In this document: one piece after another, positions 2,000 through 54,630 of the stretch
How the letters are laid out: the number at the start of each line of letters is the position of its first letter
How positions within the stretch are numbered: the first letter of the stretch is position 1
Assembly (NCBI GenBank): GCA_964618895.1
Contig: CAZUDO010000063.1
Span: forward strand, 3,279 to 67,278
Reading direction: 5' to 3'
DNA: 64,000 bases
From: an uncultured Candidatus Binatia bacterium
Lineage (GTDB): Bacteria; Desulfobacterota; Binatia; DP-6
The notes under the pieces: generated by a model
The model's input: the letters and a program-made list of their open reading frames with translations, nothing else
Database searches by the model: none
Told to the model about the DNA's origin: nothing
Position numbers and translations under genes: made by a program

Positions 2000-2599
2000 T
2001 CACGCACGCGGGTCCTCTCCGGCGAACCACGCCCGCAAGCGCAGCACGCCGTCGCGAATTCTCGTCTTGACCGTCCCCAATGGCATCTGTTCCCGGGCCG
2101 CGATCTCGCTGTGCGACAGCCCCTCGAAGTACGCAATCTCGACCGCACGGCGCTGTTCGAGCGGCAGGGTCTCCAGCCCCTCCCGTACCCGCGCTGCGCG
2201 TCTCCTCTGGTCTACGGCGTCGTCGGGGGCCTCGGATGCGACCGCCGCGCTCACGTCCGTGGTGACAGTGGTTTCCGCCCGCCGGCGCGCGCCGCGCGCC
2301 CGCTGCTGGTCGAGGGTCACGTTGCGCACGATGCGGAGGAACCACGGCCGCACCGCGCCGCGGGCGGCGTCGTACCGGTCGGCGCGGTTCCACACCCGCA
2401 GGAACGCCTCCTGGACTGCGTCCTCGGCCGCCCCCGGGTCGCCGGCGATGCGGAGTGCCAGACCGTAGGCGAGCGCACCCAGGCGATCGTACAAGGCCGC
2501 GAGCGCCCCTTCGTCACCACCCGCGACGCGCGCCAGAAGCGCCGTCTCCGACTCCGCGCCCGCGACGCGCACCAGAAGCGCCGTCTCCGACTCCGCCAT
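2000..2599 (-). CDS. ECF RNA polymerase sigma factor (SigK-like) #1
   Basis: Region 2 '[13 protein letters not shown]...[15 protein letters not shown]'; region 4 '[12 protein letters not shown]...LGTVKTRIR'. Confidence 0.93.
2213..2237 (-). promoter_or_regulatory. ATCC-N16-CCGTA motif inside the sigma #1 CDS, oriented toward rskA
   Basis: Exact match to the motif at 7608-7632 and 7673-7697. It uses A-ending codons (GCA, GTA) in a GC3-rich gene. Confidence 0.4.
2521..2596. repeat. 39-bp-period tandem duplication (2 copies) in the sigma #1 N-terminus
   Basis: ccgcgacgcgc(g/a)ccagaagcgccgtctccgactccgc at 2521-2557 and 2560-2596; encodes AESETALL(V/A)RVAG twice. Confidence 0.95.
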
Positions 2600-2611: not shown

Positions 2612-3331
2612 CTACAGGACGGCGGCCTGCACCGTGATCTCCCACGCCAGCAGCACACCGACCACGACGCTCGCCACCGCCGCACAGGCGCGCACCGCCC
2701 CGTCGGCGCGCGTGAAGCGCTCGCCGATGAGCGCCAGCGGTGCTCCCAGAAGCACGCTCATGAGCGCCATGCCGCCGATGGAGCCGAGGCCGAACAGCGC
2801 CACGTAGGCGAGCGCCAGGGTGGGCGACGGAATGCTCGCCGCCACCACCAGCATGAGCCCGGCGCTGCCCGCAAGGCCGTGCACCAGGCCGATCAGAAAC
2901 GGCCGGCGCACGTGGTGGTGCCCGGTCGCCTCGTGCCGGCGGCCCGGGACGTGCACGTGCGGATGGACGTGCAGCCGCCCGCCGTGATCGTGCGTGTGGT
3001 AGTGCACCTGGCCGCCCCGCCACAGCGACCACAGCAGGTTGGTGCCGAGCCCGATCAGCATGGCCGCCACGCCGAGCTCCAGCGTCAGCGCCACACGCGC
3101 CGGAATCTGCGCGTGCAACGCAATCATCGCCACGGCCATCAGCAGGAGCGCGGTCGTGTGCCCGAGGCCCCACACCACCCCGACCAGCGACGAGCGCCAG
3201 AGCCCGCGCCGCTGACTCAAGATGGTCGAGATCGCGGCCAGGTGATCCGCATCGAGCGCGTGCCGGATACCCAGCACGAAGCCGAACCCGAGGAGCGCCA
3301 GCGGTGTGGTTGGCATCGTCGTACTCTCCAT
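2612..3331 (-). CDS. Ni/Co transporter, NiCoT/UreH(SodT)-like membrane protein
   Basis: 'GIRHALDADH' signature, 'HGLAGS' motif, His-rich loop HYHTHDH..HVHPHVH, about 6 TM helices. ATG 3331 overlaps the upstream TGA. Confidence 0.85.
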   Translation of the reverse strand: MESTTMPTTPLALLGFGFVLGIRHALDADHLAAISTILSQRRGLWRSSLVGVVWGLGHTTALLLMAVAMIALHAQIPARVALTLELGVAAMLIGLGTNLLWSLWRGGQVHYHTHDHGGRLHVHPHVHVPGRRHEATGHHHVRRPFLIGLVHGLAGSAGLMLVVAASIPSPTLALAYVALFGLGSIGGMALMSVLLGAPLALIGERFTRADGAVRACAAVASVVVGVLLAWEITVQAAVL

Positions 3332-4734
3332 CAAACGCCGATTTGTGCAAGCGCCTGCGCCACCATGGCGAGGCCCGCGACCGAGATGACCAGCGCGCTC
3401 GCCACCGGCACGTAGCGTGCGAAACGCCCGTCGAGCGGCAGGCGCTCGAAGAAGCGGCGCGCATAGACGAGCACCAGGCCGATCCCCGTCAGCACCGCCG
3501 CCAGGCCCGCGCTGAAGGCGACGATCAGGAGCAGGCCGAAGGCGACCCGTCCGAGCGCGATGGCGCCCAGCATCACCACCAGCGCCGACGGGCACGGCAG
3601 GAGCCCGCCCGACACCCCGAGCGCGACCAGGCCCCGCCAGCCGAGCGCCCCCTCGGGCGGCAGATGGGAATGGCCGTGGGGTCCATGGTCGTGTCCGTGG
3701 TGATGGTGATGGCCGTCGCCATGATCGTGTCCATGGCCCGCGCCCACGGCCCGCAGCCGGGACGACACCAGTGACGCCCCGATCGCCACCACCAGCATGC
3801 CGGACACGACGCCGAGCCACGGGAACAACCGCTCCGGCACCACGTAGTGCGACGCCATCAGGGTCACCAGGCCGAGCGCGTACACGCCGAGCGTGTGGGT
3901 GGCCGTGACCACCAGCCCGAGCACGAGCGCGTGCCGCGCCGTCCCGCGCGCCCCCACCAGGTAGGCGCCGACGACGGTCTTGCCATGCCCCGGACTGAGT
4001 CCGTGCAGGGCGCCCAGCGCCGCCGCGATGAGCAACGACGTGAGCACCACGCCCGCGCCGAGCGGCTCGCGTGTGGCGACGAGCTGGGTCAGTCGGTCGC
4101 TGAAGCGTTCGGCGCCCACGAGCGCCGCAGCCGGCGAGCGGGCGGGTGCGTCGCTCGCGCTGCCCGTCTCCACCCGGAGGCGCGCCTCGCGCACCTGCGG
4201 TGGATTCTGGAGCCGGTCGGCGGGGTACGCCCGCAGCGCCTGGCTCTGGTCCGTACGCGGCACGGTGGACTCCGCCAGCGCGACGCCCTCGCCACCGTCG
4301 GCCACCATCTCCTGCCATCCCGGCCGTCCGACGTAGTTCCGGTCCTGCAGCACGAGCGCGCCGGCGGCGCGTCCGGCCGCACGGTACGTCAGGTCGATGC
4401 GCAGCGTCGGCAGGCCTCCGGCACCGGCCACCTGCTCCATGACGCGGGTCACGGGCAGGAGTTCGACGCGCGTCCCGTCGACAGTGAGGACGAGATGGGT
4501 CGCCAGCTCGTCTGCAACCTGGGCGAGGTACGCCTCGCGCCCGCCCGCGGCGTCGACACGGCGCTGCTCCTGGTAGGCGGGTATCTCCGCCATGTCGACT
4601 ACGTATCGGACGCTGACCGTATCCGGCGCAACGCGCAACGCGGCGTAGCGATTGACAGTGAAGTTGCCGAGCGGGTGCGCTTCCACGGCCGCGGGCAACA
4701 CGAGCAGGCAGAGCGCCAGGACGCGGGCGATCAT
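3331..4734 (-). CDS. RcnA-like Ni/Co transporter with an N-terminal secreted 'HPLGNF' domain
   Basis: Signal peptide ending AVEA then HPLGNF; 'HGLSPGHGK' and 'GLLPCPSA' motifs; poly-His loop GHGHDHGDGHHHHHGHDHGPHGHSH; ATGA overlap at 4731-4734. Confidence 0.85.
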   Translation of the reverse strand: MIARVLALCLLVLPAAVEAHPLGNFTVNRYAALRVAPDTVSVRYVVDMAEIPAYQEQRRVDAAGGREAYLAQVADELATHLVLTVDGTRVELLPVTRVMEQVAGAGGLPTLRIDLTYRAAGRAAGALVLQDRNYVGRPGWQEMVADGGEGVALAESTVPRTDQSQALRAYPADRLQNPPQVREARLRVETGSASDAPARSPAAALVGAERFSDRLTQLVATREPLGAGVVLTSLLIAAALGALHGLSPGHGKTVVGAYLVGARGTARHALVLGLVVTATHTLGVYALGLVTLMASHYVVPERLFPWLGVVSGMLVVAIGASLVSSRLRAVGAGHGHDHGDGHHHHHGHDHGPHGHSHLPPEGALGWRGLVALGVSGGLLPCPSALVVMLGAIALGRVAFGLLLIVAFSAGLAAVLTGIGLVLVYARRFFERLPLDGRFARYVPVASALVISVAGLAMVAQALAQIGV

Positions 4735-6035
4735 CGGACCTCCTGTGCGAGCGCCAGACGAGGCTCGGGTGCGAGCGTCGCCAGCACAGTGCAGGCGACG
4801 GGCGCCTGGCGCAGGTCGAAGTACGGATTGATGGCGAGCGCGCGCGCCAGGTGCCGGGCGGCGCGCCGGTCGCGGCCGTGCCCCGCGGCGATCATGCCGG
4901 CGTGAAAGTGCAGCAGCGCGTCCTCGGTGCCGAGGCGAAGCGCCCGATGGGCCGCCCGCATGGCGGCGGCGTGCTGGCCGTTCTTGTAGAGCGCCCAGGC
5001 GAGCGCGTCGTCGGTGTAGATGTCGCCGCGGGTGGTCGCCTCCTGGCGGGCGAGGCGGAGCGCCTCGGGCAGGCGGCGGTCGTGGTCGGCGTAGAACAGC
5101 GCCAGCTGGCGGCCGTAGGTCGAGCCGGCGGCCTCGGCGACCCGGCCCATGTACTCGACCAGCGCGTACTGCGCTTCGGCGTCGGCCATCCGGCCGGCCG
5201 CGGCGTGCACGTCCCCCAGGGCCGCCACCATATCCGGAGCCGGCAGCTGCGCCACGGCGCGCGCGTACAGGGCCGCCGACTCGTCGAGCATGCCCTCGGC
5301 CGCACGCACACGCGCCAGGCCGGCCAGTGCCGGCGGATAGTCGGGGACGAGGTCGCGGGCGGCCGCGTACGCCTGCCCAGCCGGTGCGAGCGCGCCGGCG
5401 GCGAAGTGCTCGTGGCCGAGGTGGACGAGCGTCCAGGCGAGGCTCTCGGGATCGCGCGGGCTGCCGGCCCGGACGGCGGCCGCGAGCAGCTCGAGCGCCC
5501 CCTCGCGGTCGCCGAACAGCGAGCGCAGGAATGCGACCCGCGTGTACGCCGGCAGGCCCGGGCGCAGGTCGAGCAGACGCTGCGCCACGTCGACGGCGCG
5601 GTCGTAATCGCCGAGCTCGACGTAGGCGTCGGTGAGGGTGGCGTAGTTCCACCAATCGCGCGGCTCGCGCGCCCGCGCCGCCGCCGCCACCGCCTCTGCG
5701 CCGCGGAAGTCGTGCTGGCCGAGCAGCACCCACGCCCGCGTGCGCTCAGCCTCGTAGTGCGCCGGATCGAGCGCCAGCGCGTGCTCGACCGCCGCCATCG
5801 CCCGCCCGTAGTAGGCGGGATCCCCCGTTTCGCGCGCCTTCTGCATGAAGGCCGTGGCCAGGGTCACGTAGTGCTCGGGACGGTTCTCGCCCAGACGACG
5901 CTCGGCGGCCTCCAACGCCTGGTCGGCGCGCGACGGCGCCGCCGATGCGGGGGACCCGGGCACGAGGCCGGCGAGCGCCAGCACGAAGGCCAGCGCCCGG
6001 CCGGGTTTCCGTACGAGGTGCACGGACGCGGTCAC
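4731..6035 (-). CDS. Secreted tetratricopeptide repeat protein
   Basis: Signal peptide, 'KARETGDPAYYGRA', multiple TPR units; GTGA overlap with the DUF4331 stop. Confidence 0.85.
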   Translation of the reverse strand: MTASVHLVRKPGRALAFVLALAGLVPGSPASAAPSRADQALEAAERRLGENRPEHYVTLATAFMQKARETGDPAYYGRAMAAVEHALALDPAHYEAERTRAWVLLGQHDFRGAEAVAAAARAREPRDWWNYATLTDAYVELGDYDRAVDVAQRLLDLRPGLPAYTRVAFLRSLFGDREGALELLAAAVRAGSPRDPESLAWTLVHLGHEHFAAGALAPAGQAYAAARDLVPDYPPALAGLARVRAAEGMLDESAALYARAVAQLPAPDMVAALGDVHAAAGRMADAEAQYALVEYMGRVAEAAGSTYGRQLALFYADHDRRLPEALRLARQEATTRGDIYTDDALAWALYKNGQHAAAMRAAHRALRLGTEDALLHFHAGMIAAGHGRDRRAARHLARALAINPYFDLRQAPVACTVLATLAPEPRLALAQEVR

Positions 6036-7549
6036 TCGCCCGGATCTCGATGCCGGCGATCGCGCCCGTCGAACGGGGTGGGAAGGAACGGGAACTCGGC
6101 GGTGATGCCCTGCTCCTGAACACCGACACCGTCGCCGACGTAGTTCTGGAAATACGGCTCGCCGCCGGCGACGCGGACCACCAGGTCGGTCACGTCGTCG
6201 TTCGGCCGCCGGCCATTGGGGAAACCGGCCGGATCGGGGGTGGCGTTGCCGGCCGCATCGTGGGCGAAAGGCCCCAGGCGCTTGACGTTGGCGGCCAGAG
6301 TGGGTGGCGTCAGCAGGTTCAGGCGGAGCAGCTCGGAGTACCGCCCGTCGTTCACATCCTGATCCGCGTACTGGAGGAGCAGATGCACCACGTCGTTCCG
6401 GTCGCCCTTGGGGACCGGGACGCCGGACACCGCCTCGAGCGCGCCGGCCACGTCGAGGCGGCGGTAGAAGCGCAGGAACACGCTCTCGTCCTCCGGCTCG
6501 GTGGCGTTCCACAGGTCCTTGCTCCCGATCGCGATGATGAGCTCGTTCACCAACGGGTTCGCCATGCGCGACACCTGGATGAACTTCTTCTCGCCGCTCA
6601 GGAGCTCGCGCGGCGGCTTCCTCGGGTTGATCTTGGGCGCGCCGCGGCGGACGGTCTCCCGCTGTCGCATGGTGCTGGCGTACATGCCGATGGTGCCGGT
6701 GGCCTCGGTCGGCGCCTTGCCGTCGACGGTGAGGCGGGTCACCGGGATCTCGATCGCGATGGTGTTGATGTTGAAGCCACTGAAGTTGTTGACGCCGAAG
6801 GGGTTCGCGGTGTCGGCTGCGTCCTCGGCGGCGCTCTGCGCGGGCAGCCCGCGCCGGAGGTTCAGCGTATCGAAGACGGCGCCCAGGTCGATGGCGAAGG
6901 TCTCCGCGCGCTGGCCGGCGAAGACCCGGACGCCGGTCGCGTCGTCGGTGTAGATGCCCTGGCTGGCGAGTTGCGGGTAGTTCGGCATGGTGCGCGGGCC
7001 GATGTTGGAGGGGACGGTGAGCATCTTCTTGCCGCCGAACAGCTCGGTGCGGTCGCACTTCCGTCCGTCTTTCCGGCAGTTTCGGACTTCGGTCACGGTG
7101 AAGCGCTGCTTCCGGGCCAGGCCGGGGGCGTCGAGGCGGTCGATCGGCGGCAGCGGCCCGCCGCCGAGCGTGGCCAGGAACTGGTCGGGGTTCTCGGTCT
7201 CGGTCTGGAACGCGAACTCGTAGTTGATGTCGTCGGCCGCGCCGTCGCGGTTGTGGTCGACGTGGAGGACATAGAGGACGTGGTCGTCGAAGGCGAAGTA
7301 GTTGGGGCCGGAGCCCGGCTCCTGTCCGGGCACCACGTTCATGATGAAAGCTACGCGACGCTCGGCGAGCGGGCGCGCCACGTTGGCGGCGTCGTAGCTC
7401 ACGAAGGCGTACACGTCGGTGATGTCCGCGCCCGGGTCGAGGGTCATGAGGGGCGCTTCGCGATGACTGGCCGCGCCTGCCGGGGTCGTCCCGAGCGTGA
7501 GGGCCAGCCCGGCCGCGGCCAGGCCGCGGCAGAGTCTCGTCGTCTGCAT
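6032..7549 (-). CDS. DUF4331 family secreted protein
   Basis: 'ASHREAP', 'ADITDVYAF', 'QVSRMANPLVNE', 'GFPNGRRPNDDVTD'; SD AGGA upstream of ATG 7549. Confidence 0.9.
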   Translation of the reverse strand: MQTTRLCRGLAAAGLALTLGTTPAGAASHREAPLMTLDPGADITDVYAFVSYDAANVARPLAERRVAFIMNVVPGQEPGSGPNYFAFDDHVLYVLHVDHNRDGAADDINYEFAFQTETENPDQFLATLGGGPLPPIDRLDAPGLARKQRFTVTEVRNCRKDGRKCDRTELFGGKKMLTVPSNIGPRTMPNYPQLASQGIYTDDATGVRVFAGQRAETFAIDLGAVFDTLNLRRGLPAQSAAEDAADTANPFGVNNFSGFNINTIAIEIPVTRLTVDGKAPTEATGTIGMYASTMRQRETVRRGAPKINPRKPPRELLSGEKKFIQVSRMANPLVNELIIAIGSKDLWNATEPEDESVFLRFYRRLDVAGALEAVSGVPVPKGDRNDVVHLLLQYADQDVNDGRYSELLRLNLLTPPTLAANVKRLGPFAHDAAGNATPDPAGFPNGRRPNDDVTDLVVRVAGGEPYFQNYVGDGVGVQEQGITAEFPFLPTPFDGRDRRHRDPGE

Positions 7550-7607: not shown

Positions 7608-7632
7608 TACGGAGGCAGAGGCGCCGGTGGAT
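7608..7632 (-). promoter_or_regulatory. Putative ECF promoter ATCC-N16-CCGTA for the DUF4331 operon
   Basis: Intergenic; reverse complement reads cATCCaccggcgcctctgcctCCGTAg. Confidence 0.65.
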
Positions 7633-7671
7633 GTCGCACCTGAGGGGGGTGCGTGCTACGAGCGCGCCAGA

Positions 7672-7697
7672 GATCCAGACGACGGGTCCCGCCCGTA
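7672..7697 (+). promoter_or_regulatory. Putative ECF promoter GATCC-N16-CCGTA for sigma #2
   Basis: gATCCagacgacgggtcccgcCCGTAc; followed by SD GAGGA (7708-7712) and GTG 7723. Confidence 0.65.
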
Positions 7698-7722
7698 CAT
7701 GCCTCCAGAGGAAGAGCATCCC

Positions 7723-8322
7723 GTGCCGTCGGCACACAGCCTGGCAGCCGTTCCACCCCGTCGGGAGGACCTCGGCGACCTGATCAGCCGCACGGCCCGG
7801 GGAGAGGAGTCCGCCCTGGCAGCCTTGTATGATCTCACCGCCGCACAGGTGAACGGCTTGGCGCTCCGCATCCTGAACGACCGGGGCGCGGCCGAGGAAG
7901 TGACCGGCGACGTGTACCTGCAGGTCTGGCGCCAGGCGGCACACTACGACGCCGACCGCGGCACGCCGCTCGCCTGGCTGCTCACGATCACGCGCAGCCG
8001 CGCCATCGACCGCCTGCGCAGTGGCGCCACGCAGCGCGCGCACACGGCACCGCTGCGGGCGGCCATCGCCTTGCCGTCGGCCGCGCCGGGGCCCGAGGAC
8101 GAGTCGCATCTCAGCCAGCGCCGGCGCTTCGTGCAGCAGGCGCTGGTGCAGCTGCCCGCCGAGCAGCGCCGCGCCATCGAGCTGGCCTACTTCGGCGGGC
8201 AGAGCCATAGTGAGATCGCGGCCACGCTCGGCGAGCCGCTCGGCACCGTGAAGACGCGCGTCCGCCTCGGCATGCGGCGGCTGCGCGACGCGCTCGGCGC
8301 CGCCGGGAAGGACGCCTTCTGA
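7723..8322 (+). CDS. ECF RNA polymerase sigma factor (SigK-like) #2
   Basis: 'AAEEVTGDVYLQVWRQAAHYDADRG..AWLLTITRSRAIDRLR', 'AYFGGQSHSEIA..LGTVKTRVR'. Start chosen from SD and promoter position; the ORF is open from 7627. Confidence 0.92.
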   Translation: MPSAHSLAAVPPRREDLGDLISRTARGEESALAALYDLTAAQVNGLALRILNDRGAAEEVTGDVYLQVWRQAAHYDADRGTPLAWLLTITRSRAIDRLRSGATQRAHTAPLRAAIALPSAAPGPEDESHLSQRRRFVQQALVQLPAEQRRAIELAYFGGQSHSEIAATLGEPLGTVKTRVRLGMRRLRDALGAAGKDAF

Positions 8323-8894
8323 TGCACACCACACTCACCGAACCCCTGCGCGAGCGCGCGGCCCTGTACGCCCTGGACGCCCTGGCGCCGGGCGAGCGTC
8401 ACGAATTCGAGCAGCATCTGGCCGGCGGGTGCGCGGTGTGTGCGTCCGAAGTGGACTCGCTCAGCGCGGTGGCGGGCAATCTCGCGCTGGCGGCCGAGCC
8501 GGTCGCACCCTCGCCCGCCGTGCGCGCCCGGGTGCTCGCCGAGGCCACGCGCCCGCAGCAGGCCACGGCCGATGCCTTCCCGCTCGTGCTGCAGGACGAG
8601 GGCACGTGGACCGAGATCGCCGCCGGCGCGCACCGCAAGATGCTCCTCGGCACGGAGACCCGGGGCGCCCTCAGCTACCTCATCCGCATGCAGCCGCGCG
8701 CGCGCGTGGGCCGGCACGTCCACGATTCGATCGAGCACTGCTACGTCGTCTCCGGCGACGCGTACATCAACGGGCGGCATCTGTTCGCCGGCGACTTCAC
8801 GGCGGCCCTCGTCGGCAGCACGCACGACGAGAGCACCACCGACGGCGGCTGCGTCCTCCTGCTCGTCGAGAGCCGGCCCGGGTTCTCGGCGTAG
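8322..8894 (+). CDS. Zinc-binding anti-sigma factor with a C-terminal ChrR-like cupin domain
   Basis: 'FEQHLAGGCAVC' ZAS-like motif; cupin 'HVHDSIEHCYVVSG' and 'GSTH'; TGATG coupling to sigma #2. Confidence 0.85.
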   Translation: MHTTLTEPLRERAALYALDALAPGERHEFEQHLAGGCAVCASEVDSLSAVAGNLALAAEPVAPSPAVRARVLAEATRPQQATADAFPLVLQDEGTWTEIAAGAHRKMLLGTETRGALSYLIRMQPRARVGRHVHDSIEHCYVVSGDAYINGRHLFAGDFTAALVGSTHDESTTDGGCVLLLVESRPGFSA

Positions 8895-8952: not shown

Positions 8953-9789
8953 GTGATGGACGGCTTCGATCTCGACAGCTACGTGGCGCGCTCCCGGGCA
9001 CTCGATCTGACCGGGATCCACTGGGAGGCGGTGCCGGACCATCCGCTGCCGCCGGAGGCACTGCGGACGCTCCGCTACATGCAGGACATCGAGAGCCACA
9101 CCGTCATCTACCTCCGTACGCTGCTGGCGACGCGCGCGGTGGACGATCCCGAGGTGGCGACGTTCTTCGCCTGCTGGCTGTACGAGGAGACTTCTCACGG
9201 CCGGGCGCTGGCGCGCTTCCTCGCCGCGGCGGGGGCGGCCATTGTCACGCGACCGCGGTCGCAGGTAAGCGTCGGGCAGCGGCTGGAAGCGGCCGCCACC
9301 GCGCTGCTCGCCAAGGCATGGCCCGACTTCGTGGCCGTGCACATGACCTGGGGCGCCATCAACGAGCTCACCACCTTGACCGGATACCGGAGGCTGGCCG
9401 CGGTGGCTGGCCATCCGGTGCTGACCGAGCTGCTGGGCCGCATCATGCGCGACGAGTCCCGGCATTTTCTCTTCTACTTCCACCAGGCCCGCGCCCGGCT
9501 GGCGCGGCCGCGCACCGCCCGGCTGGCGCGGCTGCTCGTCGATCGTTTCTGGGCGCCGGTCGGCAGTGGCGTGCAGCCGGCCGGGGAGACGCGCGCGCTG
9601 GCGCGCTACCTGTTCGACGGCACCGACGGCCGGGCGGCGGCGCGCAAGGTGGATGCGACCATTCGCGAGCTGCCGGGGTTCCAGGACGTACCGCTCCTCG
9701 ACGCCTGGATCGAGCGCGCGGTCCACGGCGGCCGCCCGCCGAGACCGCGGGCTCAGAACCGCCAGCTGAGCCCCGCCCGTACGCGATAG
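8953..9789 (+). CDS. Ferritin-like diiron-carboxylate protein (acyl-ACP desaturase-like)
   Basis: Four-helix ligand pattern: 'IESH', 'YEETSHG' (ExxH), 'INELTT', 'RDESRH' (ExxH). Confidence 0.8.
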   Translation: MMDGFDLDSYVARSRALDLTGIHWEAVPDHPLPPEALRTLRYMQDIESHTVIYLRTLLATRAVDDPEVATFFACWLYEETSHGRALARFLAAAGAAIVTRPRSQVSVGQRLEAAATALLAKAWPDFVAVHMTWGAINELTTLTGYRRLAAVAGHPVLTELLGRIMRDESRHFLFYFHQARARLARPRTARLARLLVDRFWAPVGSGVQPAGETRALARYLFDGTDGRAAARKVDATIRELPGFQDVPLLDAWIERAVHGGRPPRPRAQNRQLSPARTR

Positions 9790-10718
9790 TCCGGCATGAT
9801 CTGCAGCCCCGTGTCGTGCTGGAGCACGGGCAGATCCACCCCCGCCTCGGCGGCCAGGTTCGTTCGCCACGTGAACGCGATGCGCGGGCCGAGGAAGAGC
9901 GCCGTGATCGCCGTGTCGTCGAGCTGGCGGCCCTGCTGCTGGTCGTTGCCCTTGATTTCCCCGGAGAACACCGCCTGCAGACCGAGGGAGTACTCGTGCG
10001 TGGCGAGCGCGAACACGCCCGGCCCGGCGCTCCACATGAGGTCGTTGGCGTAACGGTAGTCGAAGGCGCCGACCGTCCGGATGGCGTACTGGCCGCTCGC
10101 CGTGACGTACAGCCGGTCCCAGCTCCAGAAGAGCTGCGCCCCCACGATGCCGTCGACGGATCCCGATCCGAGCGCCAGGTCGTGGCCGTGGACGCCACTG
10201 CCGCCGGACTCGGCGTGGTCGGCGTCCTCCTCCGCCAGCGGGCTCGGGTTCCCGCTCGGCAGCTCGAGGCCCCCGAGCACCGAGAAGCGGAACACGCTGT
10301 GCGCGGTCACGACGTGATGCACCAGGATCTGGCCGAGGAGCGACAGGTCCCCGAAGCCCGACACGGCGCCCTGGACGACACGGCCGCCCTCGAGCCGCCG
10401 GAAGTGCCGCGTGATCACCGGCAGATTCAGCTGTGCCGTCAGGCGCGGCGTGAAGGTGTAGCCGGCGACGAGCTGCGTGATCGAGCTGTTGATGCGCTCG
10501 CCGGCCGGATTGGGCACCTGGTCCCCGTCCCGTCGCAGGGTGCCGAAGTGCGTGAACTGCTCGGCCACGGCGACCCATGGCCCGGGCTGGCTCAGGCGCG
10601 CGTCGGTGGCGGTGTAGACGGCGCAGACGTCGCACGCAGATGCAGGCTCGCTCGCGGCCACGATGGCCGCCAGCATCAGGGCGATCCGGCGCCCCGACGC
10701 ACGATGTGGTCGTTCCAT
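9753..10718 (-). CDS. Outer-membrane beta-barrel 'transporter' (MetA-pathway/phenol degradation-like family) with N-terminal CxxC
   Basis: SD GGGGAG before ATG 10718; signal peptide then CDVC; 'GFGDLSL' motif; His loop DHAESGGSGVHGHD; C-terminal 'AGLSWRF'. Confidence 0.8.
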   Translation of the reverse strand: MERPHRASGRRIALMLAAIVAASEPASACDVCAVYTATDARLSQPGPWVAVAEQFTHFGTLRRDGDQVPNPAGERINSSITQLVAGYTFTPRLTAQLNLPVITRHFRRLEGGRVVQGAVSGFGDLSLLGQILVHHVVTAHSVFRFSVLGGLELPSGNPSPLAEEDADHAESGGSGVHGHDLALGSGSVDGIVGAQLFWSWDRLYVTASGQYAIRTVGAFDYRYANDLMWSAGPGVFALATHEYSLGLQAVFSGEIKGNDQQQGRQLDDTAITALFLGPRIAFTWRTNLAAEAGVDLPVLQHDTGLQIMPDYRVRAGLSWRF

Positions 10719-10740
10719 GAAGACACGTCTCCCCTGTAGA

Positions 10741-10793
10741 TGGCAGGCGCCGGACGGACGTCGTCCCTCCGGCGCGTTCCGATCGTCGTGCCA
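10741..10793. promoter_or_regulatory. Extended hairpin between the leader ORF and the barrel gene (attenuator candidate)
   Basis: Nested pairs: TGGCA 10741-45/TGCCA 10789-93; GCGCCGGA 10747-54/TCCGGCGC 10768-75; GGAC 10756-59/GTCC 10763-66. Confidence 0.5.
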
Positions 10794-10796
10794 GGA

Positions 10797-11174
10797 TCAG
10801 CCGCGAACGACTCGGGGGGGATCGGTGGGCGGCTCGGCTGCCCCGCGCGTGGGGCGGTGCCCGGCGGCCGGCGCGCCGCACAACTGCGCGAGCGCGGGGG
10901 GCAGCATGCGCTGCTCCTCGAGCGTCACACCCAGCGTGACCGGCGCATCGGTGACCGCGTCGTGACCGCAGGCGCTGCGCAGGCAGACGGTGTCGCTCGG
11001 CGTCACCGGCGCGCGGTGGCAGCCGAGCTTGCGGGCGCCGGGGGCCTCGTCCGCGCGCCGGGCGTGCATCGGGCAGCCGGGCGGGCACTCGACGCAGCCG
11101 CGCGGGAAGCTCGGCGAAATGCTGGCGAGCAACGCCAGCATCATCACCAGCGCACAAAGCCGGCGCGGTCGCAT
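10797..11174 (-). CDS. DUF2946-like small Cys/His-rich protein with a Pro-rich C-terminus (leader ORF)
   Basis: Hydrophobic N-terminus, 'CVECPPGCPMH', 'GCH', 'CLRSACGH', ends 'EPPTDPPRVVRG'; lies upstream of the barrel gene. Confidence 0.6.
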   Translation of the reverse strand: MRPRRLCALVMMLALLASISPSFPRGCVECPPGCPMHARRADEAPGARKLGCHRAPVTPSDTVCLRSACGHDAVTDAPVTLGVTLEEQRMLPPALAQLCGAPAAGHRPTRGAAEPPTDPPRVVRG

Positions 11175-11255
11175 GCCGGCGGGTTGGGTACCATCCGGGC
11201 GCCGGGGGGCGCAAGGCGGGATTCCGGAACTTCTGTGATAGGCACGCCAACCGTC

Positions 11256-12128
11256 ATGACCAGACTTTTGGCGTCCCTCGCCGTCCTGACATGCTTCGCC
11301 TGCCGCGATCCGCAGCCGCCCGCGTCCCCGACCGCGTCGCCCCCGCTCGCCAAGCCCGGTCTGCGCATCTCCATGGCCGCGTTGCACGACGCCGGCGGCG
11401 TCCCGCCCGGCTGGAAGCTGACGCCGCCCCCGGGCGACCCGGACGCGGGCCAGCGCGCCTTCGTCGACCTCGGCTGCGACTCGTGTCACCTGGTGCGCGC
11501 GGACCTCGCCGCCGCACCGCCCGACACCGAGCAGAAAGGCCCGGAGCTGACCACCATGGGTGGCCACCATCCGCCGGAGTATTTTCTGGAGTCGATCCTC
11601 ACCCCGGACGCCGTGCTGATAGAGGGTCCCGGGTACATCGGCGACGACGGGCGCTCCACCATGCCGTCGTATCCCGACCTGACGGTGACGCAGCTCGCCG
11701 ATCTGGTCGCCTACCTGCAGACGCTCACCGGCCCCGGCGGCGGGTCGGCGAAACGGCGCGGACCGATCGGCCTCGCGCAACGCCCTACCCCACCCAAGAC
11801 GAGAGCGGGCGTGTTCTACGTCCAGACCTACGATGCCAAGCCGGGCCGGCTCGCCGACCTGGAGGCCTGGTTCCACGACCCGGGCCGGGCCGCATTCCTC
11901 GCCGTCCCGGGCCTGGTGTCAATCGACACCTACGTCGACAACACGCGTCCGGGGCCGGGCATGATCGCGATGTTCGGCTTCGCCGACGACGCGGCGCTGT
12001 CGCGCTTCATGCAGGACCCCGCCGCCACGGCGCTCAAGGACAAGGTCGACGAGTTCTCCGGGGCGCACGGGCACCAGATCTTCCGCACGCCGCCGGTGTA
12101 CCGGGTGGAGAGCCTGTCGACGCCCTAG
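11256..12128 (+). CDS. Exported monoheme cytochrome c fused to a dimeric alpha+beta barrel (ABM-like) domain
   Basis: Signal/lipobox-like 'LTCFAC'; CDSCH at 11475-11489; distal Met in 'STMPSY'; C-domain 'FYVQTYDAKPGRLADLEAWF...FGFADDAALSRF'. Confidence 0.8.
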   Translation: MTRLLASLAVLTCFACRDPQPPASPTASPPLAKPGLRISMAALHDAGGVPPGWKLTPPPGDPDAGQRAFVDLGCDSCHLVRADLAAAPPDTEQKGPELTTMGGHHPPEYFLESILTPDAVLIEGPGYIGDDGRSTMPSYPDLTVTQLADLVAYLQTLTGPGGGSAKRRGPIGLAQRPTPPKTRAGVFYVQTYDAKPGRLADLEAWFHDPGRAAFLAVPGLVSIDTYVDNTRPGPGMIAMFGFADDAALSRFMQDPAATALKDKVDEFSGAHGHQIFRTPPVYRVESLSTP

Positions 12129-19935: not shown

Positions 19936-20439
19936 GTGCACGATTGGCGACTGCCGCGCCAGCTCGAGGCCGACGCCCGCGCCGGTGCCATCCGGGCCGT
20001 CCTGGCGGAGCGCACGCGGACGCTCTGGCCGGGCGGCACCCTCCAGGTCCCCGTGCTGGCGCTGTCCGCACCGCTCGTGGCCGCGCTCCGCGCCGCTATG
20101 GGGCGCAGCCGGCTCCATCGTGGCCTCGAGGCGGCCGTCGCCGCCCTCGACGCCGAGCGCCGGGGACTCGCCGTCACGGCCCGGCGGTCGGGGCGCGTCG
20201 CCGGCGAGCGCATCTCGCGCCTCTGCCTGGTCGCCGACGACGGCGCGGAGCGCTTCTACCGGCAGGTGGAGCGCTGCCTCGCCGACAACGCCCCGCGGAT
20301 CGCGGGCTGCCTGCTCACGGTCGACAGCACCACGCTCGGGACCACGCTCTACGGCCGGGACGCGGCGGTGAAGCTGGTGCTCGTCGACCACAAGGACGCG
20401 GTGGTGGACGTGCTGCGGTCGCTGGCGGACACGGGGTGA
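19936..20439 (+). CDS. Hypothetical protein with a probable L7Ae/L30e-like RNA-binding fold
   Basis: 'GLEAAVAAL...RLCLVADDG.ERF...VDSTTLG..LYGRDAAVKLVLVDH'; TATACT at 19889-19894 upstream. Start uncertain (19900 or 19936). Confidence 0.65.
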   Translation: MHDWRLPRQLEADARAGAIRAVLAERTRTLWPGGTLQVPVLALSAPLVAALRAAMGRSRLHRGLEAAVAALDAERRGLAVTARRSGRVAGERISRLCLVADDGAERFYRQVERCLADNAPRIAGCLLTVDSTTLGTTLYGRDAAVKLVLVDHKDAVVDVLRSLADTG

Positions 20440-22348
20440 CCCGGCCCGCCGGGGCGCGTCGCAACGGCGCTCTGGCGCGCAGCGCGTCGAGGCGGCTGCG
20501 CAACGCGTCCTGGACGCCGGCCGTGGTCGGGTCGCTCGCCCGGTTGTCGAGTTCGTAGGGGTCGTTCACCAGATCGTAGAGCTCGACCACGCCGGCGGTG
20601 TTCGGGTACGTGATGTACTTCCACTGCTCGGTCCGCACGCCCGCGTAGCTGGTCACGTCGGGATAGGTGTGTTCGAGCAGCAGATCGGTCCGCCACGCGA
20701 CCGGCTCGTCCTGCAGGAGCGGCACCAGGCTGCGCCCCTGCACGGAGGTCGGGATGGGGAGCCCGGCCAGCTGGGCGATGGTGGGCGCCAGGTCGATGTT
20801 CATGGCGAGGGCCGGCTCGTCCCGTACCGTGCGCACGACCCGTGGCCAGCGCACGACGAGCGGGATGCGAATGCTCTCTTCGTAGGCGGGCCCCTTGCTC
20901 CAGAAGTACCGGTGCTCGCCCCAGAAGTGACCGTTGTCCGACAGGAAGATGACCACCGTGTCGTCGCTCACGCCGCTCACCTCGAGCGCCGACATGATGC
21001 TGTCGACCGCCTCGTCCACGGCCAGGAGGGTCGTGATCTGGCGGGTGCCGATGACGTCGGACCAGCCACCATAGGTGAGGAACCCCTGCAACACATCCCA
21101 CGCGCGCGGAAGCTCCTGGATCCAGGTGGGCTTGTCCGCCACGTCCGCCTCGTTCCAGCTGGGCGCCCGCACGGCCGGGGGTGGTCCCACCGCCGCCAGG
21201 TGACGGGGCGCCGGGATCGGCGGCCCACCGCCTTCCTGGTGCGGGCCCTGCAGTCCGACGAGCAGGAAGAACGGCTGGCCGCGAGCGGCCAAAATGAAGT
21301 CCACCGCCTTCGCAGCGAGCACGTCCGTCGAATAGTCCGTCGCCGCGGTGCCGTAGCTGACCAGCGTCCCCTGCTCGACCAGCTGGTAATCGTAGTAGCG
21401 GGGAAGGACGAAGCCGTGCCACTCGTCCCACCCGGGGGGTACGTAGCAGCCCGTGCCGGTCGGCGGGCACTGCGGCAGGTAGTGGTTGCCGTACTTGCCG
21501 TACATGCCGGTCCGGTATCCCGCGGCCCGCAACCCGGTGGCGAGCGTCGGCCGGGATCCCGCCACGAACGGGATGCCGCCGCCGTTCGGCAGGTTGTTCA
21601 GCACGCGGTGCCGGTGCGCGTACTGCCCGGTCAAGATGCTCGCCCGCGCCGGCGCGCACGTCGGCGTGGGCGCGAAGGCGTTCGAGAAGGTCACGCCCTG
21701 CGCGCCGAGCCGGTCGAGCACGTGCGGCATGCCGGACAACGTGTCCCAGCGTTGGTCGTCGCTCAGGATGATGACGACGTTCGGACGCCCGCTGTCCCGA
21801 CACGCCAACGCCACGAAAGGACTCGGCCGGCACTCGCTGATCACGTCGACCAACGCTCGCGTCGCCACCGTGAGCTGGACGGTCACCGGACCCTCCGGCG
21901 GGCCGTCGTCCGTCGCCGGAAACTCCAGCCGCCGCATCCGCACGCGCAGCCGGGCCGCCCCGGAGGCGCCGGCGGGGGCGAGCACGGCGAGCACGGTGCG
22001 CGCCGGATTCGCGCACACGATGCGGAGCCCGTTCCGAACGCAGCCCTCGAGCACGGCCTGCGCGCGGAACACCCCGGCATCGCGCACCTGGAGCGATACG
22101 CTACCCGCCAGCAGCGCCTGCTCCGCCCCGACCACCTCGTCGGCCCGCACCGTGGTGCTGAGCGAGACGTACCCCGTCGCAACGGCGGTGACGCCTGCCG
22201 GGCGCAGCAGGACGCGTATCACGTCGAACGGTCGGGCGGCCCCCGCGGGGGAGCCCGTCGCCCAGACGATCACGCCGGCGAGGGCCGGAAGCCCCCGCAC
22301 GACGCGCCAGCCCGCGCCGCGCGTCAGACCCCTGGCAATCGACGGCAT
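20315..22348 (-). CDS. Secreted formylglycine-dependent sulfatase with an extra N-terminal beta domain
   Basis: 'PNVVIILSDDQR', 'CAPARAS' (CxPxR), 'GMYGKY', 'FLSDNG', 'YEESIRIP', 'ELYDL..DPYE'. Confidence 0.9.
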   Translation of the reverse strand: MPSIARGLTRGAGWRVVRGLPALAGVIVWATGSPAGAARPFDVIRVLLRPAGVTAVATGYVSLSTTVRADEVVGAEQALLAGSVSLQVRDAGVFRAQAVLEGCVRNGLRIVCANPARTVLAVLAPAGASGAARLRVRMRRLEFPATDDGPPEGPVTVQLTVATRALVDVISECRPSPFVALACRDSGRPNVVIILSDDQRWDTLSGMPHVLDRLGAQGVTFSNAFAPTPTCAPARASILTGQYAHRHRVLNNLPNGGGIPFVAGSRPTLATGLRAAGYRTGMYGKYGNHYLPQCPPTGTGCYVPPGWDEWHGFVLPRYYDYQLVEQGTLVSYGTAATDYSTDVLAAKAVDFILAARGQPFFLLVGLQGPHQEGGGPPIPAPRHLAAVGPPPAVRAPSWNEADVADKPTWIQELPRAWDVLQGFLTYGGWSDVIGTRQITTLLAVDEAVDSIMSALEVSGVSDDTVVIFLSDNGHFWGEHRYFWSKGPAYEESIRIPLVVRWPRVVRTVRDEPALAMNIDLAPTIAQLAGLPIPTSVQGRSLVPLLQDEPVAWRTDLLLEHTYPDVTSYAGVRTEQWKYITYPNTAGVVELYDLVNDPYELDNRASDPTTAGVQDALRSRLDALRARAPLRRAPAGRVTPCPPATAARPPPRPCGRRAPASPPRPGRRAWSRAWCCRP

Positions 22349-22563: not shown

Positions 22564-22659
22564 GGAGAAGGATGGGGCCCGGTGGCCCCACCGGTCTTCA
22601 AAACCGCGTTGTCCCTCCTTGCGGGGGACGGAAGGTTCGACTCCTTCCCTTCTCCGCCA
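22564..22659 (+). tRNA. selC: tRNA-Sec (UCA)
   Basis: 8-bp acceptor GGAGAAGG/CCTTCTCC, 6-bp D stem GGGGCC/GGCCCC, anticodon loop CTTCAAA, long variable arm, 5-bp T stem GAAGG/CCTTC with loop TTCGACT, encoded G-CCA. Confidence 0.97.
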
Positions 22660-29968: not shown

Positions 29969-32900
29969 ATGATTGACCGCATCATTCAGTGGTCGCTGGC
30001 GAATCGCGCACTGGTACTCGCCGCTGCGGCGCTGCTGCTCGTCTGGGGAGGCTATGCGGCACTGCGGATGCCTGTCGATGTCTTCCCGGACCTCACGGCG
30101 CCGTCGGTGACGGTCATCGCGGAAGCGCACGGGATGGCCCCGCAGGAGGTGGAGTCGCTCGTGACCTTCCCCATCGAGACCGCGCTCAACGGCGCCGCCG
30201 GTGTGCGACGGATCCGCTCCGCCACCGGGGTGGGCATCGCGGTGGTCTGGGTCGAGTTTGCGTGGGGCACCGACATCTACCAGGCACGGCAGATCGTCGC
30301 CGAGAAGCTGCAGCTCGCCGAGGGCTCGCTCCCGCCCGACCTCGAGCGACCGGTCCTGGCGCCCGTCTCGTCCATTATGGGCGAGATCATGTTCATCGCG
30401 CTCACCTCCGACCACCACTCCTCGCTGGAGATCAAAACCACCGCCGATTGGGTCCTTCGGCGCCGCCTCCTTGCCGTCCCCGGCGTGTCGCAGGTCGTGC
30501 CCATCGGCGGCGACACGAAGCAGTATCAGGTGATCGCAGACCCGGAGCGCCTTGCTGCCTACCACCTCGGCGTCAACGACGTCGTCGACGCACTCCGTGC
30601 AACCAACGAGAACACCTCGGCCGGCTTCTATCAGGACGGCGGCCAGGAATACCTCATCCATGGCGTCGGCCGCGTCATCTCGCTGGACGACATCGCCGAC
30701 ACCTTCGTCGCCAGTCGAGGCGGCCAGTCCGTGCTCGTTCGTCACGTCGCCACCGTCGCGATCGGGCCCGCGCTCAAGCGCGGCGACGGCTCCCACAACG
30801 GCAAGCCTGCGGTCATCCTCGGCATCCAGAAGCAGCCCGGCGCCAACACGCTGGAGCTCACCGCACGCCTCGACGCCGTCCTCGACCAGCTTCAAGGGAC
30901 CCTGCCGGCCGGAATGACGATCAACCGCCACATCTTCCGCCAGGCAGACTTCATCGCCGTCGCGGTCCACAACGTCACGGCGGCCCTCCGCGACGGCGCC
31001 CTCCTGGTGGTCGTCGTCGTCTTCGCCTTCCTCGTCAGCTGGCGCGCGACCGCGATCACCGTACTCGCCATCCCCCTGTCGCTTCTGACCGCGGTCCTCG
31101 CGCTCGACGCGCTCGGCGCGACGGTCAACACGATGACGCTCGGCGGCATGGCCATCGCCGTCGGCGCACTCGTCGACGACGCGATCATCGACGTCGAGAA
31201 CGTCCTTCGCCGTTTGCGCGAGAATGCCGCCCTGCCCCCCGGGGCCAGGGCTGGACAGTTGAGCGTCGTATTCAAAGCGAGCAAGGAGATTCGGGGGTCG
31301 ATCGTCTTTGCCACCCTCATCATCCTGCTGGTGTTCCTGCCGCTCTTTTTTCTCGCGGGTGTCGAAGGTCGCCTCCTTCGGCCCCTTGGATTTGCCTACG
31401 TCGTCTCCCTCGCCGCCTCGCTGGCGGTCGCGCTCACTGTCACGCCGGCCCTCTGCGGCGTGCTCTTTCGCTCGACTGCTTCCTATGGACGCCACGAGGG
31501 GTCGCTCGTGCAGTGGCTGAAGACACGCTACGCGCCGATTCTCGCGTACACCCTCCCCCGCTGGCGCGCAGTGAGCGCGGTGGCGCTCGGCGGCCTCGCG
31601 GTCGCGGTCCTGGCCCTCACCACAGCCGGCCGCACATTTCTCCCGAACTTCAACGAAGGCACCCTCACCATCAGCGTCGTCACCCTCCCCGGCACGTCGC
31701 TGCGCGACTCGGGTACGCTGGGAAGGCTCGTCGAGGAGATACTTCTCGAGCACCCCGAGGTGGTGGCCACGGCACGCCGCACGGGACGCGCGGAGCTCGA
31801 CGAGCATGCGCAGGACGTGAACGCGTCCGAGATCGACGTCGGCCTGCAGATGAAGGAGCGCCCGAAGGAGGAGTTTCTGACCGCCCTCCGCCGTGCCCTC
31901 TCGGTCGTACCAGGGACGAACATCACGATCGGCCAGCCCATCTCCCACCGCATTGACCACATGCTCTCCGGCACCCGGGCCAACATCGCCGTAAAGGTGT
32001 TCGGCGAGCATCTCTTCGAGCTCAGGCGTCTGGCCGAGCAGGTGCGGCAAGCCATTCAGGGCGTCGCCGGCGTGGTCGACCTCTCGACCGAGCAACAGAC
32101 GGACATTCCGTTCCTCACCGTCACGTTCAACCGTCCCGCCATCGCACGACACGGGCTGCGCATCCGCGACGTCGCCGAAGCGATCGAAACCGCCTTTGCC
32201 GGCCAGGTGGTCTCCCGCGTTCGGGAAGGCGATGCCGCGTTCGACCTCATCGTTCGCTACCCGGAGAGCGCCCGCGGAAACCTCGAGAGCATCCGCGAGC
32301 TGCGCCTCACCACCCCGACCGGCGCGGAGCTCCCCCTGCACGCCCTGGCCGACGTACGCAAAGACCAGGGGCCCAACAGTGTCAGCCGCGAGAACGTGCA
32401 GCGGAAGATCGTGGTGATGTGTAACGTGGCCGGCCGGGACCTCGGGGGCGTCGTCGCCGACATCCAGACGGCCATCGGGCGCACCGTGACGCTCCCGCCC
32501 GGGTACCACATCGAGTACGGTGGCCAGTTCGAGAGCGCCGCCGAAGCCTCGCGCACGCTCCTCGTCCTGGGAGCCCTGGTCACGGTCGGCATCTTCGGTC
32601 TGCTGGTGCTGGCGCTCGGCTCGAGCCGGGACGCGGTCGTGGTCCTCGTGAATCTCCCCCTGGCGCTCATCGGGGGGGTCGTCGGCATCTTTCTCTCGGG
32701 CGGCATTCTCTCGGTTGCCTCGCTCATCGGCTTCATCACGCTCTTTGGCATCGCGACCCGAAACGGCCTCATGCTCGTCTCACACATCCGCCACCTGCTC
32801 CAAGTCGAGGAGGTCCGCGACTTCGCCGAGGCGGTCACGCGCGGAGCCCTCGAGCGCTTGGCACCAATTCTGATGACCGCGCTTGCCGCGGGCCTCGCCC

Positions 32901-42544: not shown

Positions 42545-42654
42545 GGCTCCGGACACATAGTGCCGATGGATGTAGACCATCGTCAAGCCGAGGCCTTCCG
42601 GACTGCGGCCGTGTTGCGGCCGATCCCCCCCGTTGCTACCTCTGCCCGCGGGTC

Positions 42655-54500: not shown

Positions 54501-54630
54501 ACCTCCACCTTGCATTCGGTCTGTGCGTCGCTAGACATGCGGCGGTGTTCTCCCTGCTGCTCGGCGCCGTCCTGTGGCGCGCCCCCGAACCGATCACGCT
54601 CCCGGCGGGCAAGGCGCACGCCGTCGAGCG

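Follow-up and report, generated by a model that had tools for sequence, protein, structure and literature searches.

Amino-terminal Cu(II)- and Ni(II)-binding (ATCUN) sites, which have the form Xaa-Xaa-His at a free N-terminus, are known from serum albumin (DAH), histatin-5 (DSH) and the extracellular N-terminus of human Ctr1 (MDH), where the site lies at the entrance of a metal permease. N-terminal metal sites are also known from bacterial copper import of the CopC/CopD and YcnJ type, in which a periplasmic domain with an N-terminal His metal site passes metal to an inner-membrane permease or is fused to it. RcnA and RcnB of Escherichia coli form a nickel-cobalt efflux pair, of which RcnB is the periplasmic accessory protein. 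Here, we describe a DUF4331 gene and its operon, present on a stretch of 64,000 nucleotides (referred to below as the window; contig CAZUDO010000063.1, positions 3,279 to 67,278) from an uncultured Candidatus Binatia bacterium. Based on sequence analysis, we propose that the DUF4331 protein matures to NH2-Ala-Ser-His, binds Ni(II) or Cu(II) in the manner of an ATCUN site, and captures or buffers metal together with a tetratricopeptide repeat (TPR) protein and a permease, a proposal to which we give an even chance of being correct.

Like the N-termini of albumin, histatin-5 and Ctr1, the one predicted for DUF4331 is extracytoplasmic and has a free amine, a residue other than Pro at position 2 and His at position 3. 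The likeness extends to the basic residue 4 (DAHK in albumin, ASHR or SSHR in DUF4331). However, the three known sites are carried by flexible tails with variable residues 1 and 2 and no conserved continuation, whereas in DUF4331 an invariant Ser2 and R-E-A-P head a 480-residue fold. The CopC/CopD/YcnJ layout is shared by a NicO-like protein of the window (HPLGNF…) and by HupE_UreJ_2 proteins (HKPSDSYL…), although DUF4331 itself has His at position 3 and not 1, the permeases are of the NicO and HupE/UreJ types, and Pfam scans of DUF4331 and its partners revealed no sequence similarity to CopC/CopD. As with RcnA/RcnB, the gene for an RcnA-like permease with a His-rich loop shares its operon with that of a secreted accessory protein; unlike that pair, the window permease has an extra periplasmic domain, and the operon also includes genes for a TPR protein and a second NicO permease. 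No similarity of DUF4331 to the RcnB family was found in Pfam and NCBIfam scans. By these scans of DUF4331 and its partners, none of the known systems named above is related in sequence.

A literature search found no published account of DUF4331, PF14224, IPR025566 or SHREAP, and nothing relevant on HupE in connection with copper, extracytoplasmic function (ECF) sigma factors or TPR proteins. For natural periplasmic ATCUN proteins of bacteria it yielded nothing but designed peptides and the His-rich internal motifs of PcoB, and no exported bacterial family with a conserved ATCUN site was found. The DUF4331 N-terminus would represent a known type of site, located on a family and a fold that are both uncharacterised and within a hitherto undescribed system of three parts.

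Results

The DUF4331 gene of the window and the predicted N-terminus of its product

The features of the gene are as follows, with the predicted cleavage position indicated by an arrow here and below.

6032..7549, minus strand: DUF4331 coding sequence (open reading frame with translation; Pfam PF14224, E=7.2e-94), encoding a 505 aa precursor and a predicted mature protein of 479 aa
7472..7549, minus strand: predicted Sec signal peptide of 26 aa, with an A-x-A signal peptidase I site (A-G-A), by sequence
7463..7471, minus strand: Ala-Ser-His (codons gcc-agt-cat), predicted mature residues 1-3, an ATCUN-type Xaa-Xaa-His
7451..7462, minus strand: Arg-Glu-Ala-Pro, continuation of the N-terminal motif (R in 159/172, E in 163/172, A in 169/172 and P in 172/172 homologues; invariant in alignment A3)

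The gene starts with an ATG at 7549-7547, stops at 6034-6032, and is preceded by a Shine-Dalgarno-like sequence, AAGGAAGAG, located 6-14 nt 5' of the ATG. The N-terminus of the precursor reads MQTTRLCRGLAAAGLALTLGTTPAGA↓ASHREAP and has the properties expected of a signal peptide: a basic n-region, a hydrophobic core, small residues at -3 and -1 (A-G-A), and no lipobox Cys. A base-by-base check placed Ala27 at 7471-7469, Ser28 at 7468-7466 and His29 at 7465-7463, with 7451-7549 covering Met1 to Pro33. The first-pass annotation of this DNA, which had described a 26-aa signal peptide ending in A-G-A followed by A-S-H-R-E-A-P, was right in every detail. PF14224 was the sole match of the protein in the Pfam and NCBIfam scans, no NCBIfam model being matched. 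The match (315.8 bits, cut-off 27) aligns residues 28-492 with profile positions 2-421 of 421, and, since it starts at profile position 2, the family model begins at the ASHREAP motif. No second DUF4331 copy was found in the window.

Several other identities were considered for this protein and rejected: a lipoprotein has a Cys at +1, which is absent here; export via the twin-arginine translocation (Tat) pathway does not agree with an ordinary Sec-type leader lacking a twin arginine; residue 1 is Ala in one third of the members, which does not agree with an N-terminal nucleophile hydrolase; and the A-S-H members do not fit Ni(II)-assisted self-cleavage at S/T-X-H.

Position of the His relative to the processing site across the family

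The homologues analyzed comprised 120 close homologues, 150 representatives of 50%-identity clusters, two further sets of ~120 each, and the proteins encoded at 80 genome loci (designated by L numbers) from many phyla, which share 31-69% identity with the window DUF4331. Gene context was taken from these loci; it should be noted that the tblastn counts depend on the queries chosen. In about 500 homologues from many phyla, the sequence [A/S]-S-H-R-E-A-P directly follows either a signal peptide or the initiator Met, and it was never found at an internal position. All 172 non-redundant leader-bearing homologues have His at the motif position. The residue before it is Ser (168) or Asn (4), the second Ser (116), Ala (55) or Thr (1), and the third mostly Ala (145) or Gly (16); the fourth is near random (L, G, F, R, S, Q, W and others), the fifth is mainly A (85), V (30), G (16), T (13), S (13) or L (12), and R-E-A-P follows at +1 to +4 with a conservation of 92-100%. 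This is the textbook pattern of an A-x-A signal peptidase site, which would be located two residues before the His throughout the family. Each of 335 leader-bearing sequences has a hydrophobic core within the 28 residues that precede the motif, and most leaders are 20-35 residues long. The earlier claim that S/A-S-H-R-E-A-P is the conserved start of the family is borne out by the presence of the His in 172/172 sequences and by the PF14224 model, which starts there. Such regularity is far more than chance would produce.

The three N-terminal residues predicted in this way are SSH (198), ASH (145), TSH (3), ANH (2), SNH (2) and GGH (1), and in a further set SSH (114) and ASH (3). Divergent members that do not have R-E-A-P retain Xaa-Xaa-His after the predicted cut (SGH-GDSV, GGH-RDGQ, ANH-RSGP and SNH-RSAP). 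Three paralogues are without the xSHREAP motif: P0208 and P0193, which have a different start, and P0262, in which another N-terminal domain, rich in Cys, and a Thr/Ser linker take the place of the motif. These paralogues constitute natural motif-less controls.

A large clade, present in Actinomycetota, Chloroflexota, Dormibacterota and some Acidobacteriota, has no leader, and its members start with M-S-S-H-R-E-A-P or, rarely, M-T-S-H. It accounts for 119/119 matches to P0170, 8/150 representatives and 9/80 loci. The leaderless start is not due to a mis-called gene start, because no ATG, GTG or TTG occurs in the ~58 open codons upstream at five high-GC loci (L039, L040, L042, L044 and L061). 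Met before Ser or Thr is removed by methionine aminopeptidase. Hence, the leaderless proteins should also end as Xaa-Ser-His, and a His at position 1 would be impossible there. Two unrelated maturation routes, signal peptidase cleavage and Met removal, would thus converge on the same three-residue end.

The -3/-1 rule was discarded as the sole means of fixing the cleavage site, because it does not separate a mature His3 from a mature His1: the cut that gives His3 obeys the rule in 164/172 sequences and a cut after the Ser in 163/172. The His3 register is supported instead by the A-x-A pattern, the leaderless clade, the absence of the motif from internal positions, the divergent members that retain Xaa-Xaa-His, and partner proteins processed as A-x-A↓H without a spacer (see below). 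Taken together, the mature end is very probably Xaa-Ser-His. The prediction in the first-pass annotation that His is mature residue 3 therefore stands as regards the constant distance to the processing site across phyla and the M-S-S-H start of the leaderless proteins; the -3/-1 rule, on the other hand, by itself equally permits His1. Variation of the predicted cleavage site relative to the His, the refuting outcome set beforehand, was not seen across the homologues.

Conservation, ATCUN features and structural model

In alignments spanning 31-81% identity, no His other than His29 (His3 of the predicted mature protein) is invariant, and conserved Cys residues are absent. This single invariant His fits an ATCUN site, because such a site, with four nitrogen ligands, needs one side chain only. 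The other invariant residues of the family are Asp, Glu, Asn, Arg, Gly and Pro, and near the N-terminus Ser2, Arg4, Glu5, Ala6, Pro7, Asp12, Pro13, Asp16 and Asp19 are invariant in alignment A3. By prediction, all sequence features of an ATCUN motif are present. Firstly, residue 1 would have a free alpha-amino group, generated by the A-x-A cut or by Met removal in the leaderless proteins; it is never Gln, so that pyroglutamate would not be formed. Secondly, given the predicted cut, His occupies position 3 in 172/172 sequences. Thirdly, residue 2 is not Pro but Ser or, in four sequences, Asn. In addition, residue 4 is basic, as in albumin.

A structural model of the mature protein was generated with AlphaFold from a diverse alignment of 104 sequences and has a predicted local distance difference test score (pLDDT) of 91.7 and a predicted TM score of 0.93. 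It replaced a first run with 34 close homologues, which had a pLDDT of 60 and a poor N-terminus and with which Foldseek found nothing. The first ten residues of the final model have a mean pLDDT of 68, versus 93-98 in the next blocks, and form helical turns at 3-5 and 7-10; the low confidence of this segment fits an end that is mobile in the metal-free state. Foldseek comparison of the confident model with the Protein Data Bank (PDB) revealed no relative (best E 0.029, TM <=0.12), and sequence and profile searches of the PDB with DUF4331 gave no matches. Without a PDB relative, the structure yields no functional lead.

Operon structure and neighbouring genes

DUF4331 is the first gene of a string on the minus strand. 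The other members of the string, and the divergent regulatory genes, are listed below.

4731..6035, minus strand: TPR protein with its own predicted signal peptide (…LVPGSPASA↓APSRADQ); Pfam TPR_2, TPR_19 and TPR_14; start at 6035 or 6023
3331..4734, minus strand: NicO/RcnA-like permease with a His-rich loop and a ~190-aa periplasmic N-terminal domain; Pfam NicO, PRK10019
4675..4677, minus strand: His20 of this permease precursor, predicted mature residue 1 (AVEA↓HPLGNF) by sequence; A-x-A↓HP[LM]GN in 10/11 orthologous loci
2612..3331, minus strand: second NicO-family permease (HoxN/HupN/NixA-like); Pfam NicO E=1e-8, TIGR00802 weak; orthologues at L001, L017, L022, L028, L036 and L062
1282..2599, minus strand: ECF sigma factor (2599-2000) and membrane anti-sigma factor (~2003-1282), which close this gene string; Sigma-70 r2/r4-type homology
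7627..8894, plus strand: divergent ECF sigma factor (SigK-like, 7627/7699-8322) and soluble ChrR-type anti-sigma factor (zf-HC2 and cupin, 8322-8894); Pfam and NCBIfam

Start and stop codons overlap between DUF4331 and the TPR gene (GTGA, 6032-6035), between the TPR gene and the first NicO gene (ATGA, 4731-4734), and between the two NicO genes (TGATG, 3329-3333), which implies, as far as gene layout can tell, that the four genes are translationally coupled. The first permease belongs to the NicO family in the broad sense (29.5 bits versus a cut-off of 27.7), its PRK10019 match (E=4e-29, 101.6 bits) being below the RcnA-subfamily cut-off of 195, and its N-terminal domain has no Pfam match. Its N-terminus reads MIARVLALCLLVLPAAVEA↓HPLGNF. 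The idea that this RcnA-like neighbour exposes His1 agrees with the pattern in 10/11 loci, with the correction that the gene starts at 4734 and that the predicted His1 codon is 4677-4675. Homologues of the membrane anti-sigma factor are present at L001, L018, L022, L043 and L052, and the two ECF sigma factors that flank the operon (2000-2599, minus strand, and 7627-8322, plus strand) are paralogous, with 47-49% identity.

Beside the divergent regulators, a gene at 8953-9789 (plus strand) encodes a ferritin-like or desaturase-like di-iron protein, as judged from weak Pfam matches, and a gene at 9753-10718 (minus strand) encodes a secreted protein of 321 aa that belongs to no family and in which the N-terminal region reads …ASEPASA↓CDVCAVY. 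Elsewhere, the window has the appearance of an ordinary chromosome of a high-GC Gram-negative bacterium. It includes a selenocysteine tRNA gene at 22564-22655 (plus strand; Rfam tRNA-Sec, 73.7 bits) and genes at 10740-12128 (plus strand), 20315-22348 (minus strand), 29969-33103 (plus strand), 42633-45479 (plus strand), 51418-54612 (minus strand) and 60897-63443 (minus strand), among which are those for a cytochrome c domain protein, a sulfatase, an AcrB-type RND pump, an L,D-transpeptidase, a polysaccharide biosynthesis protein and an O-antigen ligase with TPR repeats.

Gene context of DUF4331 at other loci

A TPR protein gene adjoins that of DUF4331 in 45 of the 80 loci, almost always just downstream and on the same strand. 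NicO/RcnA-like permeases with an HPLGNF-type N-domain are encoded at 10/80 loci, which are from Binatia, Methylomirabilota/Rokubacteria, Acidobacteriota, Actinomycetes and Rubrobacteraceae. At 29/80 loci, DUF4331 is accompanied by a permease of the HupE/UreJ type, known for nickel (and cobalt), with a predicted mature N-terminal His; the window permeases, in contrast, are NicO-type. Twenty-three of these are HupE_UreJ_2 permeases (Pfam E ~1e-46) of Methylococcaceae, Nitrospirales, Nitrosomonas, Burkholderiales and Myxococcota.

L007:10865-11986, L008:10749-11891, L051:6548-7819 and 20 other loci: HupE_UreJ_2 permeases beside DUF4331 and the TPR gene

These permeases have their own periplasmic N-domain of ~175 residues, an undescribed domain that is predicted to start A-x-A↓HKPSDSYL in 19/20 cases and contains an EF-hand-like DxNxDGxITWxE loop. 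It is not detectably homologous to the N-domain of the window permease: homology of the HPLGNF-type and HKPSDSYL-type domains was rejected on the basis of an hhalign probability of 1%. The remaining 6 loci, from sphingomonads, have as neighbours a HupE/UreJ protein (predicted mature HDGTG…) and a DUF4198 protein (predicted mature HDxWIQP…). At one locus (L014:10825-11997), a single open reading frame seems to encode a fusion of an HPLGN-type N-domain with a HupE_UreJ_2-like membrane part, which suggests that the His1 domains are exchangeable modules.

In summary, DUF4331 and the TPR protein recur with permeases of three unrelated Ni/Co-type families, in ~40/80 loci. The link to Ni/Co transporters that had been suggested for this locus is thereby confirmed and widened. 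Most of the permeases and other partner proteins are predicted to expose an N-terminal His; these proteins use A-x-A↓H without a spacer, and the DUF4331 proteins of the same operons have two extra residues. An ECF sigma factor gene is present beside DUF4331 in 28/80 loci, and one for a ChrR-type anti-sigma factor in 11/80.

The leaderless DUF4331 genes have a context of their own. Every one is preceded by a small gene (85-105 aa) that overlaps it or ends <=~130 nt upstream, and whose product has a twin-arginine signal (S/T-R-R-x-F/L-L…) and a conserved C-terminal block of ~40 residues (LVVHVRDAxTGEV…RDRxLxxRL).

L037-L042, L044, L046 and L061 (just upstream of the match at ~8001), L082:858-1178 and L083:6682-6996: small twin-arginine gene

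The large subunit of [NiFe]-hydrogenase is carried through the Tat pathway by its twin-arginine small subunit, as a so-called hitch-hiker. The gene order at the leaderless loci resembles this arrangement and suggests, by analogy, that DUF4331 is co-exported in the folded and possibly metal-loaded state. The window DUF4331 differs in having an ordinary Sec-type leader.

Directly downstream of leaderless DUF4331 genes, a gene was observed for a ~105-aa protein that has a His-rich start (MSHTHH…, MHNHH…, MNGHRH…) and belongs to no Pfam family. It could be another metal-binding partner.

L037:9486-9824, L038:9344-9655, L040:9410-9730 and equivalents at L042 and L044: protein with His-rich start

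At three Chloroflexi loci (L083-L085), genes for a nickel superoxide dismutase (Sod_Ni) with an S26-type maturation peptidase and for a cupredoxin (Copper-bind) lie <=4 kb from leaderless DUF4331, a proximity that may be a coincidence.

Discussion

The sequence of events that we propose starts with signal peptidase I, which would cut after A-G-A to give NH2-Ala-Ser-His. An ATCUN-type site for Cu(II) or Ni(II) would then arise from the imidazole of His3, the free amino group and the backbone amides of residues 2 and 3, and Ser2, Arg4, Glu5 and the nearby invariant aspartates might tune or extend it. In the periplasm, DUF4331 would capture or buffer the metal in partnership with the co-translated TPR protein and the inner-membrane NicO/RcnA-like permeases, of which the first is predicted to offer a His1 site on its periplasmic domain. 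The metal might be moved in either direction, by uptake or by efflux.

Several points weigh against this proposal. Firstly, the conservation of Ser2 (98%) and R-E-A-P (92-100%) matches that of the His, and a minimal ATCUN site needs neither. Secondly, a cut that would place the His at position 1 obeys the -3/-1 rule in nearly all sequences, as described above. Thirdly, an ATCUN site has a very high affinity for Cu(II) and Ni(II) and lets them go slowly, properties that do not suit a transfer protein, and its binding of Co(II) is poor, even though the partners belong to Ni/Co families. Fourthly, no transporter gene was present within 4.5 kb at about half of the 80 loci, several of which are short contigs. 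Finally, with respect to nickel and cobalt, the closest homologues are found in methanotrophs, nitrifiers, Methylomirabilota and Binatia, to which copper fits as well as nickel; Rfam searches of the window and 23 loci gave no match to a cobalamin or NiCo riboswitch; and no protein of the NikR type was found among the regulators, which are ECF sigma factors.

The first of these points bears on an alternative in which the Xaa-Ser-His end is kept but His3 is part of a larger, structured site, together with Glu5, Asp12, Asp16, Asp19 and perhaps the amino group. This could be an octahedral Ni, Co, Fe, Mn or Zn site or the active centre of an enzyme, in which case DUF4331 may be an enzyme or receptor and not a simple carrier. 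Conservation is in line with this possibility: Ser2, Arg4-Pro7, Asp12, Pro13, Asp16 and Asp19 are invariant in A3, the S, R, E, A and P of the motif are kept in 92-100% of the 172 homologues, and many Asp, Glu, Asn and Arg residues are invariant across a 480-residue fold that has no solved relative. The conserved Ser2 and R-E-A-P together with the three aspartates suggest that the N-terminal segment either docks on the protein or forms such a larger site. Furthermore, the model has helical turns at 3-5 and 7-10 and not a free tail, and a six-coordinate geometry would suit the Ni/Co partner families better than a planar one. However, the family has one invariant His only and no conserved Cys, and no similarity to an enzyme family was found by Pfam, NCBIfam, Foldseek and PDB profile searches. 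In addition, the motif is never internal and its two-residue spacing is kept by two maturation routes, which argues that the free amino group matters. On balance, we consider a larger site unlikely, but an alternative that deserves to be taken seriously.

It is also conceivable that the N-terminus has no metal role and serves folding, docking of the TPR protein, export or quality control, and that the link to transporters reflects another process in which both take part. Indeed, no neighbour is as constant as the TPR protein (45/80 loci), peptide termini are typical ligands of TPR domains, and about half of the loci have no nearby permease. This would leave unexplained, however, why permeases of three unrelated Ni/Co-type families recur, each with a predicted N-terminal His, and why the sole invariant His of the family is exactly at position 3 of the predicted mature chain; we regard it as quite improbable. 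Finally, cleavage after the Ser to give His1, and with it a histidine-brace-like site formed by the amino group and the His1 imidazole as in CopC, lytic polysaccharide monooxygenases and the neighbouring permease domains, is very improbable even though A-[A/S]-S↓H agrees with the -3/-1 rule in 163/172 sequences and partner proteins of the same operons are predicted to start with His1, because methionine aminopeptidase cannot expose the His of the leaderless M-S-S-H, the small residue at His-5 with a variable His-4 (A-x-A) would be left unexplained, the partners use A-x-A↓H without a spacer, and an invariant Ser at -1 would be unusual for signal peptidase I, which prefers Ala; by prediction, the His of DUF4331 is thus not mature residue 1.

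Returning to the ATCUN-type site, the metal may be Ni, Cu or Co. The permease families point to Ni or Co. On the other hand, sites of the ATCUN and His1 kind typically bind Cu(II) and Ni(II) and are ill suited to Co(II), and methanotrophs, nitrifiers, Methylomirabilota and Binatia are organisms with a high copper demand; Cu may be the metal instead of Ni or Co. At one locus, from a Methylomagnum metagenome-assembled genome (L007:3988-5952), a P-type ATPase gene was noticed by eye just upstream of the ECF/anti-sigma/DUF4331 cluster; its product has the motif …ATPCPLL…, and a TPCP-like membrane motif is presumably a mark of the Ni/Fe-transporting P1B-5 group.

Going further, one may speculate that DUF4331, the TPR protein and the permease constitute a widespread and undescribed envelope pathway, in which metal is handed from the Xaa-Ser-His site, on a protein with a new fold, to His1 on the periplasmic domain of the permease, the permease families are interchangeable, and the Actinobacteria/Chloroflexi variant is exported folded on its twin-arginine partner. 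We put this forward tentatively, as it is doubtful that the pathway operates in this complete form.

DUF4331 is a very large and widespread family: 3,917 representatives of 50%-identity clusters were found at E≤1e-3, in Proteobacteria, Acidobacteriota, Nitrospirota, Myxococcota, Actinomycetota, Chloroflexota and others. It is uncharacterised and a strong candidate for a new periplasmic metal-handling protein, and it gains a concrete hypothesis that can be tested cheaply. The agreement of two maturation routes on one end may also offer a general way to recognise functional N-termini from sequence alone. If the proposal is true, DUF4331 would provide the first conserved ATCUN site in an exported bacterial protein family, and a role would emerge for the uncharacterised TPR partner and for the N-terminal domains that many NicO and HupE/UreJ permeases carry. 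Models of how methanotrophs, nitrifiers and soil bacteria are supplied with nickel, cobalt or copper would also gain a component.

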